Shown one piece after another: positions 27,001 through 30,000 of a stretch of 64,000 bases of DNA. The stretch spans positions 32,001 to 96,000 of the forward strand of contig CBFGKH010000008.1 of the NCBI GenBank assembly GCA_965649295.1, read 5' to 3'. The DNA is from a candidate division WOR-3 bacterium (lineage in GTDB: Bacteria > Hydrothermota > Tepidihabitantia > Tepidihabitantales > Tepidihabitantaceae). Each line of letters opens with the position of its first letter. Position 1 is the first letter of the stretch. The position numbers were made by a program.

Positions 27001-30000
27001 TCGCCCGAGAGATGCCGCAGCTAATCTTTGAAGTTGGCGACTGCTGTGAGCTTGCCGCTGCTGCCGAGACAGGCATCAGTACAACCCGCAAGCTCGGCGC
27101 CGGTATCGCCGGCCCTAAGGCCGGCTATGCCGATGCCCGCGCCACCTGCGAGGCGTTGGCGCGAGAGCTTGGTCTCGGCTGCCGATTTGAGCCATTGGAA
27201 GCAGCCGAGTTTATCCCTGGCCGCGGTGCCAGGGTAATGGCCACCAAGAACGGCGCTGAATTCGAATGGGGCCGGGTGGGCGAGATTCACCCGGAAGTAT
27301 TGGGAAACTTCGGTATCAACCAACCGGTAAGTGTTTTCGAGGTTGATCTTGGCCGATTGTAAGGAGGCGATATGCCAAGGTGTCCACATTGCGGTGAGCC
27401 GGTAGGGGCCAACCAGGAACGCTGTTTCGCCTGTGGCCAGCCCATCCGCAGTCGGGACCTGCGGATTGAGCAGGGCACCAACCCGCTGGTCTTTATCATT
27501 GGCGGCGCAGCCGTGCTGGTCGCCATCGTCGCCGCGGTCATCGTCACGATCAACGCCAACCGCCGCCACGCTCAAGAAATGGAGGCACTGCGGCTGAAGC
27601 AGATTCAGGACTCAGTTCGCAAGGCGAACCGGGCGATGCTCGATTCAGCCCGCGAGCAGCGGCGAACCGAGGCCGAGCAGAGCCTGCTCGCCCAACTTGC
27701 CGATGTCGAGGCGCGATTCAACGAGGTTCGCAGTCAGGTCATAAAAAAGCAACCTTCTTCCCAGCAGCAGTTCATTATCAACAAGTTTCAGGCCGAGATT
27801 GTCCGACTGCGCGGGCTGGCGAATACGATTGGGTCGGCACCGCCTGACAAACGTCGCCAACTTCAGGAAGAACTGCGCGATGGCACGCGGAAGCTACGCG
27901 GCCTGGTCACCGACCTAAGCCGCGCTCCCAAGAGTAAGGACCAGTAACGCTAGCTAGCCTGCGCCCGCTCAGAAGGGCGCGAAATGGGCCTCGTGCCAGT
28001 AGGATTCGAGCAACTGGCTTTGCTGGCGGCGGATGGCGGCGGCGTGGTTCTCTTCCCACCGAACAAGAGCACTAAAGAACCGTTGCGCTTCCGGCTCCTC
28101 GACCTGCCCCAGCAGGTTACGGTATTGGGTGATGCTGGCGAGCTCAAGTTGGAGCCCAACGGCCAGCGCCGTCATCTCCCAGTGAGCCTCAGCAATGCGC
28201 GCTCGCAGCTCAGCGGAGAAGATTGGGTTTTCACCGCCAAGCTCTGCGCCAGCAGCGTTCAGCAGCCAGTTCGGCTGACGACCGGCAATCAGCTCACCGT
28301 ATTGCTGTTTGAGATATTCAAGGTGCTGAACTTCCTCGCTGGCAAGCTGCTGAAAGACATCCCGTCCTTTAGGATCAATCGTCTTGGCTGCGGCCGCTGT
28401 ATAGAATTCGTTGCCGGCCTGCTCGGCCAGGATTGCCTGCTTCAGCCCGGCAATCAGCAGCTCAGGATTGCCCACTTTCTGGTTGCACCTCGCGCTTGAG
28501 CAGTTCGTCGATCTTGCCGAGCAGCTCCTCAGGCTTAACCGGCTTGTGAACAAATGCATCGGCGCCCGCCTGATAGGCTGCGACCTCGTCCTTCTCGCTG
28601 GCCCGGGCCGAGCATACCACAATCGGCAGATGCTTTTTCTGGGTGCGCCGCAGCATCGTGCAGGTCTCATAGCCATCCATGCCCGGCATCAGAAGGTCCA
28701 TCACCACCAGGTCTGGTCGGTCGTTCTGAACCATCTTCAGGGCAATCCTGCCGTCGGGCGCAATGGAGACCCGATAACCTGCGCTCGTAAGCAGTTTCTC
28801 CATGTAGATCTGAATCGGCCGTTCGTCCTCCACTACCAGGATGTGCTTCTGCTCCATGGGTTCAGGATAAGGCCCGCCAGCAGCAAGTCAAGCCCACGCA
28901 GCGTGGATTGGTGCTGAGCAACCCCGTGCTGGCAGCCAGCCGATTGACGCCCGGCCTACTGCCGGCTACGCTATCTTGCCACCAACAAAGGAGAACCCGT
29001 GCGATTCATCTTATTGCTGAGTACGCTCACCGCGCTGGTGCCGGCAGCAGAGATTCTGGTCTGGAACTACGACACCCTTGACCGTTTTTATGACCCCATC
29101 CGCAACGATTCGGTTGACTGTGCCTACTGGGTTGCCGAGCAGCTTCGGGCTGACGGCCACGCTGTTACCGTCCAGCCCGGTGCAGCGCTACCGCCATCCC
29201 TTACTGGGTTCGATGCTGTCTTCTGTCTGATGGGCTGGTACCGGTGCTGAGGCGACAACTGCACCATCGCTCAGGCTGAGCGAACCAAGCTGATTGACTA
29301 TCTAGAGGCCGGTGGCCCGGTCTATGCGGAAGGTGGCGACATCGGCTATTCTAATGCCACCACCAATATCTGGCCCTACTTCGGTGCCAGCTACCTAGCT
29401 GACGGCAATGCGGTCGGTAATGTCAGCTCCCTGACTGGCCGGCCCGGCACTTTCGCTGCCAGACTCCGCTTCGGTTATCCCTACAGCCAAGGTCCAGACA
29501 GCTATGTTGACGAGCTTGGTGCAGCCGCCGGCCAACTACTGCTGGCCGACCAGAGCTCGATCGGTCGCGCGGTGGTGCACCAGACCCCAACCTATCGTTC
29601 AGTCGTCGCCGCCACCATTGCCGGTGCCCTGTTGCCGACTGACCGTGGCGAGTTCATCAGTGCCTGTGCCCGCTACCTGGTAGAGGGACTCGGCATTGCC
29701 GACTATCAGCCCGCCAGCCGGCAGCAGCGCGCCGTACTGCCAACCAGCTCCGTTGCGGCTGGCAGCGAGCTGCGTCTTTGGGCGCCAGCAGACGCCGGCC
29801 AGCTCTACGATGTGACCGGTCGAGTCATCGGCACAATTCGGGCCGGCGCCACAACCATCGCCACTCAGGGGCTACCCAACGGTGCCTACTTGGCCTTGTT
29901 CGGCGGCACGACTCTTCGCTTCGTAGTAGCAAAGTAACAAATGCCGCCAGCCCGGCATCGGTCGGGCTGGCGGCGCCTGCGCTCAAAACTACAACGGTTT

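Follow-up and report, generated by a model that had tools for sequence, protein, structure and literature searches.

A probable selenoprotein with an amidotransferase-like fold and predicted export in a candidate division WOR-3 bacterium

In a 64 000 nt stretch of the genome of a candidate division WOR-3 bacterium (contig CBFGKH010000008.1, positions 32 001–96 000; hereafter the window), two short neighbouring ORFs raise the question of whether they are separate genes or the two parts of one gene whose internal UGA is read as selenocysteine (Sec). The upstream ORF (28999–29250) has a GTG start and specifies 83 aa before terminating at the TGA at 29248–29250, whilst the downstream ORF (29572–29937) specifies 121 aa and lies in the same frame, the gap separating them (29251–29571) being 321 nt long. 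The genome-wide survey's note had joined both ORFs (g01505 and g01506) and the gap into one, which the coordinates and the common frame bear out. Translating 28999–29937 of the plus strand with TGA as U confirmed the structure claimed: a single frame of 312 codons and a TAA stop, in which the TGA at 29248–29250 is the sole in-frame TGA and places U84 in the context ...FCLMGWYRC-U-GDNC.... Purine-rich boxes resembling the Shine–Dalgarno-like sequence of this gene were also found ahead of the chosen starts in several relatives. Beyond the gene lies an inverted repeat, which has a T-rich tail on the minus strand only. The features of the locus are collected in Table 1.

Table 1. Features of the selenoprotein locus, in window coordinates
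Feature	Position	Strand	Details
Shine–Dalgarno-like AAAGGAG	28987–28993	+	5 nt ahead of the GTG start
Whole selenoprotein gene	28999–29937	+	GTG start, TAA stop, one TGA; full-length homologues each with 1 TGA
Predicted signal peptide	28999–29049	+	Residues 1–17 (MR, hydrophobic core, PAA); predicted by eye from the sequence
Class-I glutamine-amidotransferase-like alpha/beta domain	29050–29700	+	About residues 18–234; AF2 and VIA-align; no Pfam model
Sec loop, MGWYRC-U-GDNCTIA	29230–29271	+	Residues 78–91, between strand 73–77 and helix 92–103 (DSSP; clade alignment)
In-frame TGA (U84)	29248–29250	+	TGA in one column in 38/38 distinct sequences
bSECIS-like hairpin	29267–29283	+	7-bp stem UCGCUCA/UGAGCGA, apical loop GGC; begins 16 nt past the UGA, inside the coding sequence
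Elbow-position strand-turn-helix VYAEGGD	29320–29340	+	Residues 108–114, without Cys (DSSP)
C-terminal beta-sandwich, putative T9SS type-A sorting/FlgD-Ig-like domain	29749–29934	+	Residues 251–312, seven strands in the model
G+C-rich inverted repeat	29943–29974		12 bp; between the selenoprotein gene and the convergent gene 31110–29989

Comparison with 272 genomes of the phylum found the same arrangement in many relatives. Exactly one TGA was present in 46 of the 47 strongest matches (E ≤ 4e-52), the 47th having no coverage of the site, and the TGA-bearing matches were spread over 39 genomes and 6 families. Thirty-eight of the 46, all distinct sequences, were read at the level of residues: the TGA fell in the identical column in every one, at identities down to about 31 %, and in the alignments the conservation of the protein ran on, with the frame intact, on either side of it. 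The residue at +2 was Asp in each of the 38, whilst Cys preceded the site in 35 (being exchanged for Thr or Gly in three) and Gly followed it in 34. A 14-residue motif described earlier as invariant is indeed so among close relatives, but U and D(+2) alone are fixed throughout the clade. At closer range, the family count given in the same note was reproduced, with matches in 15 of the 44 genomes, from 6 of the 15 genera, as was the single TGA in each of 13 full-length relatives (46–52 % identity) and one fragment; the two stop-free matches do miss the site, covering just residues 95–284 and 228–309. No conserved start codon or ribosome-binding site was found 3' of the TGA. In stored protein sets the family appears in pieces: 63 of 155 proteins begin just past the UGA, at profile positions 90–111, and three stop exactly at ...GW[YF]RC.

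The genome contains tRNA-Sec (72.9 bits, anticodon tca), SelA (576 bits), SelB (345 bits) and two Sec-type SelD genes, each with the one TGA expected, and the matches to all four components exceed their curated cut-offs. SelA was also present in 36 of the 39 genomes with the TGA form; of the other three, two have tRNA-Sec, with pieces of SelA at the ends of contigs. In G176, which has the TGA form and is a single contig of 90 % completeness, SelA is represented by just a 70-bit fragment, and no match to tRNA-Sec exceeded the gathering score. Elsewhere in the genome under study TGA is an ordinary stop, terminating 590 of 1517 long open frames, on which ground a reassigned genetic code was rejected; moreover, one paralogue of the selenoprotein uses TGA as its own stop codon.

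Shortly after the UGA, the transcript could form a hairpin resembling a bacterial SECIS element. Taken by itself, the hairpin of the window is ordinary for its G+C content (z = 0.21 against shuffles, 101-nt fold), so that single-sequence stability is uninformative and support for it has to come from comparison with relatives. Hairpins of the window's 7-bp kind (type B, 20 sequences) were paired in 94.3 % of cells, with four of the seven pairs changed on both sides; their covariation score was matched by 0 of 500 shuffles, and slid controls reached 34–51 % pairing. In a second kind (type A, 15 sequences) 98.9 % of cells were paired and two of six pairs were compensatory. Pairing in this hairpin, 16–19 nt 3' of the TGA, is preserved by compensatory changes. 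The survey's note had reported UCGCUCA-GGC-UGAGCGA here, which is present, at the same offset as in relatives, which needs amending: the two types lie 3 nt apart (+20 versus +17, with the U of UGA numbered 1). The apical loops open with G (GGC, GUN), and a small apical loop containing G, commonly in first place, is described as a feature of bacterial SECIS elements in PMC1088965. An Rfam scan of 28000–31000 (E ≤ 10) returned nothing at the hairpin and one chance intron-like match elsewhere. Among 11 TGA-free homologues, one of them a fragment off the site, the best stems averaged 5.0 bp as against 6.5 bp, a weak contrast in so small a sample; their folds were also less stable (−7.7 versus −12.4 kcal/mol), but their G+C content is lower (0.45 versus 0.52), making them a weak control.

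As regards the protein, the absence of a Pfam family was borne out: no family matched the whole protein at E ≤ 10, ThuA-like PF06283 included, and neither it nor any other Pfam GATase1-like family was among the matches of 84 aligned members. Sub-threshold hints came only from distant superfamily members (DUF4159 in P0079, ABC_transp_aux in P0057), and a search with the family profile found no solved relative of the domain. An AF2 model from a deeper alignment (pLDDT 91, pTM 0.77), with secondary structure assigned by DSSP and comparisons made by VIA-align and Foldseek, supersedes the weak flavodoxin-like match reported before (Z 8.8, from a model of pLDDT 50) with a class-I glutamine-amidotransferase (GATase1)-like fold at Z 15–17. 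The top structural match was 2gk3_A (Z 17.1, rmsd 3.3, 190 aligned residues; VIA-align), followed by 3rht_A (Z 16.4), 5xb7_A (Z 16.1) and 1t0b_A (Z 15.4). The GATase1 alpha/beta fold is present; true amidotransferases (8rp0, 1kxj, 2ywb) scored Z 12–14 and non-catalytic look-alikes Z 15–17. By topology, strand 108–111 and helix 115–119, reading VYAEGGDIGY, would be the counterpart of the nucleophile elbow; no Cys occurs in residues 105–120, and Y109, E111 and G112 are near-invariant across the superfamily. Because the elbow has no Cys, membership of the catalytic GATase1 enzymes was rejected. The same topology suggests that the Sec loop sits beside this former active-site elbow, which would bring U84 near C83, C88 and the elbow itself. 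A thioredoxin-fold redox selenoprotein of the UxxC/CxxU type was also considered; the protein has instead a GATase1-like fold and a C-U-G-D motif, and no thioredoxin-type Pfam or NCBIfam family matches it.

The predicted signal peptide and the putative T9SS C-terminal sorting domain together indicate that the product is probably destined for the cell surface or for release into the medium. In the model, pLDDT is low over the first ten residues, and residue 18 opens strand 1; relatives show an AxA-type end right ahead of that strand. At the C terminus, the T9SS sorting domain TIGR04183 was the sole NCBIfam match and fell below threshold (12.9 bits; cut-off 23), whilst the family profile matched FlgD (3e-9), the PorU CTD 6za2 (1.8e-6) and gingipain CTDs, and PF18962 was matched by 52 of the 84 aligned family members. 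The genome has SprA (445.8 bits, above cut-off), two PorU-like genes covering profile positions 3–1093 of 1095 (369 and 340 bits; cut-off 420) and a PorV-like gene (87 bits; cut-off 250) that adjoins one of them. A second architecture occurs in paralogues and sister proteins, in which the same Sec domain is preceded by a lipoprotein-type N-terminus and by an Ig-like domain. Pfam analysis of 58 flanking ORFs at 20 loci revealed no conserved partner in the gene neighbourhood, nor any conserved neighbour hinting at substrate, reductant or metal handling. At one locus (L052) a thioredoxin-domain gene lies upstream, and in the window a rubrerythrin-like ORF lies upstream.

The survey's note had presented the family as new; it is not an isolated one. 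In a tree built without the Sec-loop columns, every one of the 37 TGA rows belongs to a single clade (SH-aLRT 96), and a surrounding secreted-domain superfamily that has no Pfam model gave 2821 matches (E ≤ 0.001). The Sec proteins are thus a Sec-bearing clade of a large, uncharacterised superfamily, whose domain often accompanies secreted proteases as an accessory module. In most relatives from the superfamily the Sec loop contains no Cys, and within the clade none of the 38 sequences read has replaced Sec by Cys. In P0016, which belongs to the clade, R-P stands at the position of C-U. A neighbouring CxxC clade (P0020, P0027, P0035, P0040 and P0108), as well as P0026, has Cys in the U column when aligned by HMM, whilst MAFFT aligns them differently; as no Cys form was seen inside the clade, the customary Sec/Cys pair is found only by way of this neighbour, whose loop alignment depends on the method. 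The CxxC clade further includes one member with W at its second Cys, as well as truncated calls starting M/V-x-PPG. Two database proteins, P0003 and P0038, have W at the Sec site. P0003 nests in the TGA clade as sister to the protein of the window, and judging from the protein alone its W is therefore most readily explained by gene calling under a different code. Scanning metagenome contigs with P0038 gave sorting-domain matches only (best coverage residues 129–344), none of them over the Sec site.

How the protein stands to known systems can be set out by fold and by motif. STM3548 (2gk3), the Planctomyces GATase1-like protein 3rht, the ThuA-like proteins 1t0b, 4jqs and 4e5v and the middle domain of GH42 beta-galactosidase (5xb7, 4oif) are non-catalytic look-alikes that have the alpha/beta fold in common with it over about 170–200 residues (Z 14–17, rmsd 2.9–3.9); compared with these, the window's protein has no detectable sequence kinship and adds the predicted signal peptide and T9SS sorting domain. 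It lacks the classical catalytic elbow Cys, as presumably do some of these relatives, and we know of none among them that is a selenoprotein. Mammalian thioredoxin reductase has a C-terminal Gly-Cys-Sec-Gly redox centre. Here, too, a vicinal Cys–Sec pair is followed by Gly (C83-U84-G85) and should be able to form a selenenylsulfide; unlike that of the reductase, it is in an internal loop of another fold, has no flavin domain, is predicted to be extracytoplasmic and has Cys(−1) in only 35 of 38 sequences. With T9SS type-A cargo (gingipains, PorU, PG93) the protein would have the FlgD-Ig-like sorting domain in common, the family profile giving matches to 6za2, 5m11 and 5hfs. GxCxG is the nucleophile-elbow pattern, and GxUxG matches it; the window's protein, by contrast, has an elbow region with neither Cys nor Sec and places Sec in the preceding loop. 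According to the 2026 table, the GxUxG selenoprotein is likewise built on a class-I amidotransferase scaffold. The same source, Table 1 of a 2026 review, lists an outer-membrane TonB-dependent receptor selenoprotein, which would share with ours a place in the cell envelope (predicted in our case), although the receptor is a beta-barrel with CxxU, unrelated in fold and family. The NCBIfam models for the TonB-dependent receptor selenoprotein and for the GxUxG family did not match, and the earlier claim that no NCBIfam selenoprotein model does so holds for release 20.0. Absence of the family from NCBIfam and, as far as the accessible text of that list goes, from the 2026 list of 119 families is supported. 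The BSepDB text does not mention TA06, WOR-3, secretion or signal peptide, and a literature search found neither a selenoprotein among T9SS cargo nor selenocysteine work on WOR-3 of this topic. A search of sequencing runs returned no RNA run, and four DNA runs that share just 5–9 % of words.

Several independent lines therefore support the core of the survey's reading, namely one gene for a selenoprotein outside the curated families, whose export is predicted. In the explanation that we regard as probable, the locus is a single gene in which the UGA at 29248–29250 would be decoded as Sec by the organism's own SelA/SelB/SelD/tRNA-Sec system, directed by the short in-gene hairpin, and the product, comprising a predicted signal peptide, a GATase-like domain of ~215 residues and a putative T9SS sorting domain, would be exported and may possess a Cys–Sec redox centre. 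The Sec would lie in the loop after the third core strand, beside what is the elbow in true amidotransferases and here reads Y-x-E-G-G-D, its Cys having apparently been lost. That the TGA should instead be a true stop, leaving separate genes or the remnants of a broken one, is the least credible of the alternatives. It would account for gene callers splitting the locus and for the TGA form in G176 without intact Sec machinery, but not for a single TGA in one column of 38 sequences with frame and conservation intact on both sides, nor for the covarying downstream hairpin; neither a start nor a ribosome-binding site is conserved downstream of it, the starts of downstream fragment calls are scattered over positions 90–111, and an 83-residue product would end inside what AF2 models as one domain (about residues 18–234). 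A split gene or pseudogene was rejected on account of the conserved TGA column and the single folded domain. Hardly more credible is insertion of a standard amino acid at the UGA, through a reassigned Trp or Gly code or near-cognate suppression: the W of P0003 and P0038 would fit, and against it stand the regular use of TGA as a stop, by the paralogue as well, the SelD genes with their single expected TGA, the hairpin and complete Sec machinery, and the position of P0003 inside the TGA clade, where its W is more simply ascribed to the code used in gene calling.

If Sec is accepted, what it does at the surface admits several readings. It is quite possible that U84 and C83 (with C88 in many members) act as a redox selenol/selenenylsulfide centre in extracytoplasmic thiol, disulfide, polysulfide or peroxide chemistry, a role at which the C-x-x-C in the same loop of the sister clade hints. 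An extracellular redox enzyme would need a source of electrons, and no candidate was found among conserved neighbours. That the Cys–Sec pair is instead a site for thiophilic ligands (Hg, Cu, Cd, As or S/Se species), serving to capture, sense or detoxify them at the surface, seems unlikely, even if the lack of a conserved reductant or partner gene suits a role in binding better than one in enzymatic turnover and the conserved acidic and amide residues round the loop (D86, N87, E111, D114) could aid binding. In favour, too, 'CU'-motif families in the accessible part of the review's Table 1 are mostly metal-related (CopZ-family 2Fe-2S protein, MerB-like SaoL, HgcA, MbdU), and the TonB-dependent receptor selenoprotein appears there as well. 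Metal-handling genes are not conserved nearby, however, the GATase1-like fold is not one known for binding metals, and Cys(−1) has given way to Thr or Gly in three of 38 sequences. A purely structural Sec, whose selenenylsulfide would serve as a non-catalytic cross-link to stabilize a loop exposed on a surface protein under harsh conditions, we consider improbable. Most superfamily members manage without Cys in the loop, P0016 has lost both C and U within the clade and the domain often serves secreted proteases as an accessory module, all of which would agree with such a role; yet a residue as costly as one requiring UGA, SECIS and SelB has been kept in 38 of 38 sequences and never replaced by Cys, which could itself cross-link, and the flanking Gly and Asp are conserved in the manner of an active site.

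Returning to the selenoprotein as an exported product with a Cys–Sec centre, a wider proposal, speculative and on the whole rather doubtful, is that the clade forms a family of Sec-obligate surface enzymes, exported as T9SS cargo or as lipoproteins, with a new active site beside the disused elbow that may perform extracellular chalcogen or metal chemistry (turnover of polysulfide, sulfur, selenium or disulfide, for instance); a CxxU/CxxC clade would have arisen in parallel from the same scaffold. The hosts proposed for such enzymes are uncultured bacteria of the phylum to which 'candidate division TA06 bacterium DG_78' belongs. Survey methods that need Cys homologues may overlook families without them, as stated in PMC12013277. 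No Cys homologue exists among the 38 sequences, and the clade therefore represents a class of selenoproteins under-counted by surveys. In public gene calls the family is also systematically broken up or cut short, such that a Sec-aware profile would mend many annotations in these phyla, and the analysis of the family brings to light a large secreted-domain superfamily without a Pfam model. For the biology of Sec, the context is new: the residue stands on a non-thioredoxin, amidotransferase-like scaffold, in a loop other than the old catalytic site, and the proteins bearing it are predicted to leave the cytoplasm by two different routes, as T9SS cargo and in lipoprotein-type form. These findings raise the questions of what role a selenol might play at the cell surface and from where its reducing power would come.

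The frame at 28999–29937 has the structure given in the genome-wide survey's note, namely two ORFs in the same phase that are joined across an open gap by one TGA; the 321 nt separating the two ORFs contain no further stop in frame. With this TGA read as selenocysteine (Sec, U) the product has 312 residues, with U84 lying within FCLMGWYRC-U-GDNC. At two further loci (L055 and L051) Pfam-less ORFs of 373 and 375 codons, similar in length to the convergent ORF of the window, adjoin the family gene.

Features of the selenoprotein gene, its surroundings and related loci (window positions unless a genome and contig are named; G000 is the window's own genome)
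Feature	Position	Strand	Remarks
Selenoprotein frame	28999–29937	+	
Upstream ORF	ends with TGA 29248–29250	+	starts GTG, 83 codons; sequence reading
AAAGGAG	5 nt upstream of GTG start	+	sequence reading
Inverted repeat UCGCUCA-GGC-UGAGCGA	29267–29283	+	starts 16 nt after UGA
Downstream ORF	29572–29937	+	121 codons, frame of upstream ORF; ORF reading
235-codon ORF, rubrerythrin/ferritin-like match	27969–28857	-	overlaps 131-codon response-regulator-like ORF (28462–28857) in a different frame; real start probably further downstream
373-codon ORF	29989–31110	-	convergent with selenoprotein gene; no Pfam match
selD paralogues	G000:C1:355394–358244; C1:318451–319377		one in-frame TGA each; one adjoins selB, same strand
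TGA-form member	G176:C1:528981–529943		single-contig genome
Seven fetched paralogues, L082–L088	G158:C5, G167:C29, G161:C11, G188:C42, G186:C12, G182:C21, G157:C86		no sorting domain

Within the 44 genomes of the taxonomic family the counts in that note were reproduced (matches in 15 genomes and in six of 15 genera), and every match spanning the site indeed contained exactly one TGA, whilst the two stop-free matches it had listed extend over residues 95–284 and 228–309 only. We then have, from a profile of 15 members (A2) searched against all 272 genomes of the phylum, a best 47 matches (E ≤ 4e-52), spread over 39 genomes, six families and one class; 46 hold one TGA and the remaining one begins after the site. 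Matches from E 2e-38 down were stop-free and lay within larger open frames (215 to ∼1300 codons among the matches listed). In the 38 of the 46 TGA-bearing matches read at residue level, the TGA always fell in the same alignment column, preceded by Cys in 35 (Thr twice; Gly once, with Cys shifted to +1) and followed by Gly at +1 in 34 and by Asp at +2 in all 38. As the flanking residues C76 and C88 were often substituted in these sequences, the motif, previously described as invariant, is so among close relatives only. The member from candidate division TA06 bacterium DG_78 reads RC-U-GDVS, and G+C is low around its gene.

A profile search of 1.84 billion representative proteins matched 2821 at E ≤ 0.001 and 64 at E ≤ 1e-30. 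Of 155 matching proteins examined, 63 begin at profile positions 90–111, just past the Sec site, and three terminate exactly at ...GW[YF]RC, the pattern to be expected of gene callers that stop at a Sec codon. Two full-length database proteins, P0003 and P0038, have W at the site. In a tree of 117 domain sequences, with loop columns excluded, all 37 TGA rows fell in one clade (SH-aLRT 96, 39 rows), the two TGA-less rows being P0003 and P0016, in which R-P replaces C-U. Within this clade P0003 and the window's protein are sisters, and the simplest reading of the W in P0003 is thus a gene call under a genetic code in which TGA means Trp. P0016 (268 aa) stands beside the TA06 DG_78 protein and has R-R-P-G-D against R-C-U-G-D elsewhere, which looks like a loss of both Cys and Sec.

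Outside the clade, Sec-less copies of the domain are modules of large secreted proteins with subtilase, C25 and M4 peptidase, PKD, malectin and sorting domains, and most carry a Cys-free short loop of LG-I-Y-P-x-N-N-H type. This ∼215-residue domain, resembling class-I glutamine amidotransferases (GATase1) and lacking a Pfam model, sometimes occurs in two or three copies per large secreted protein, alongside S8, M4 and C25 peptidase domains among others. A separate clade (support 99, seven rows) contains five proteins with a W-C-x-x-C-G...PPG loop together with P0038, which has C-S-G-W-G. That loop, a W at the second Cys position in one member and the start of several truncated database proteins at M/V-x-PPG together suggest a second, separate CxxU-type Sec group with CxxC homologues. 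Proteins with the W-C-x-x-C-G-x-x-PPG loop, its W variant or PPG starts were P0020, P0027, P0035, P0040, P0108, P0038, P0106, P0149 and P0054. In the HMM alignment the U column holds a Cys of P0026 and, in the CxxC proteins, their second Cys; MAFFT lines up the loop in another way, so that a Cys counterpart to the Sec of the window's own clade depends on the aligner.

The window's protein had no match in Pfam, and its sole NCBIfam match was a sub-threshold one to the sorting domain (CTD) of type IX secretion (T9SS). AlphaFold2 with an 84-row alignment (A7) gave a mean pLDDT of 91 and a pTM of 0.77, superseding the poor model (pLDDT 50) reported earlier. Residues 14–234 of the model resemble GATase1-like domains, the structural matches being STM3548 (2gk3_A; Z 17.1, rmsd 3.3, 190 aligned), a GATase1-like protein (3rht_A; 16.4, 2.9, 186), a GH42 middle domain (5xb7_A; 16.1, 3.2, 185), a ThuA-like protein (1t0b_A; 15.4, 3.3, 196), the IFT52 N-terminal domain (5fms_A; 14.6, 3.4, 192) and various true amidotransferases (Z ∼12–14); Foldseek agrees with this fold. 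A strand (73–77) leads into the loop 78–91 that holds U84, followed by a helix (92–103), a strand (108–111), G112-G113-D114 and a helix (115–119). By fold topology we take the strand-turn-helix at 108–119 to be the amidotransferase nucleophile elbow, and the loop after the preceding strand, with U84, is presumably the loop beside it. The elbow has no Cys in the window's protein; few columns reach 90 % conservation superfamily-wide, and Y109, E111 and G112 of the elbow belong to them. On this model the former active-site region would house the Cys83–Sec84 centre, which in many members would have C88 behind it.

Residues 251–311 are modelled as a seven-strand sandwich, and the family profile matches FlgD Ig-like domains and solved T9SS sorting domains (PorU CTD 6za2, PG93 and gingipain R2), with PF18962 matched by 52 of the 84 aligned members. 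The window's genome encodes SprA (445.8 bits) and two full-length PorU-like genes scoring under the curated cut-off, one adjoined by a PorV-like gene. In a second architecture, seen in the seven fetched paralogues, the Sec domain has no sorting domain; the five that were read have an N-terminal hydrophobic stretch ending in Cys (lipoprotein-like by eye), then an Ig-like segment of ∼90 residues, then the Sec domain. Both architectures occur together in several genomes. That one and the same domain comes with two different predicted export signals points to a role outside the cytoplasm.

The decoding machinery is present in the window's genome, with a tRNA-Sec (72.9 bits; also called by ARAGORN, anticodon tca), SelB (345 bits), SelA (576 bits) and two SelD genes with a single TGA in each. 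TGA is an ordinary stop there, terminating 590 of 1517 open frames of ≥ 250 codons, and one paralogue of the selenoprotein family has TGA as its own stop codon. Of the 39 genomes holding the TGA form, 36 have SelA; this co-occurrence is weak evidence because SelA is widespread in these families regardless (40 of the 43 other genomes of family f1). Two of the remaining three, G041 and G188, carry SelA fragments at the ends of contigs, and in both a tRNA-Sec passes the gathering score. The single-contig G176 (90 % complete), with only a SelA fragment of 70 bits and no tRNA-Sec found above the gathering score, is the one unexplained exception, for which trait loss, assembly frameshifts or a decaying gene could account.

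Taken alone, the window's hairpin is unexceptional for its composition (z 0.21), and the case therefore rests on comparison. Codon-register alignments over 51 nt from the UGA contained two hairpin types: type B, that of the window (stem columns 20–26 and 30–36, loops mostly GGC, GUC or GUU), and type A (CCGUCG-GUN-CGACGG, columns 17–22 and 26–31). In 20 type B sequences 94.3 % of cells were paired, with both-side change in four of seven pairs and a covariation score reached by 0/500 shuffles; for 15 type A sequences the values were 98.9 %, two of six and 8/500, all somewhat favourably biased as the structures were derived from the sequences they were scored on. The compensatory changes are real (in type B, U-A/C-G at 11:8 and C-G/A-U at 9:6), and type B pairing falls to 34–51 % when the 3′ partner is slid 1 to 3 columns. 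Bacterial SECIS elements are described as having a small apical loop with a G in it (PMC1088965). An Rfam scan of the hairpin region matched no model. Hairpins were weaker at the aligned site in 11 TGA-less sequences, a small sample of lower G+C that includes one fragment off the site.

What the analysis shows, then, is a UGA conserved together with a SECIS-like hairpin in a genome equipped for Sec, the fold and, at the level of the family, sorting domains. It is unlikely that the TGA is a true stop or that it is read through with a residue other than Sec. We tentatively favour, at somewhat short of an even chance, a redox-active selenol/selenenylsulfide at Cys83–Sec84 that would act on an extracytoplasmic substrate, because Cys and Sec are vicinal in C-U-G, because a parallel clade has CxxC and because a 2026 selenoprotein review states a general redox role for Sec. 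The main rival, that Cys-Sec binds a thiophilic ligand, is less probable; in its favour, most families that the review lists with 'CU' have to do with metals, and the neighbourhood of the gene encodes no reductant. A purely structural role for the Sec is unlikely.

NCBIfam 20.0 (June 2026), which includes curated selenoprotein models, gave no match to such a model. Among the 119 families and subfamilies in Table 1 of the 2026 review, none is described there as having such a fold, such a motif or such a location; closest is a cytoplasmic CTP-synthase-related amidotransferase with its Sec in GxUxG. Text searches for selenoproteins with type IX secretion, or for selenocysteine with WOR-3, turned up nothing relevant, though candidates could stand in the supplements of papers. 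The way of decoding is canonical; set against the sources compared, supplements aside, what is new is the scaffold, the Sec site, the absence of Cys orthologues among the clade members read and the predicted export.
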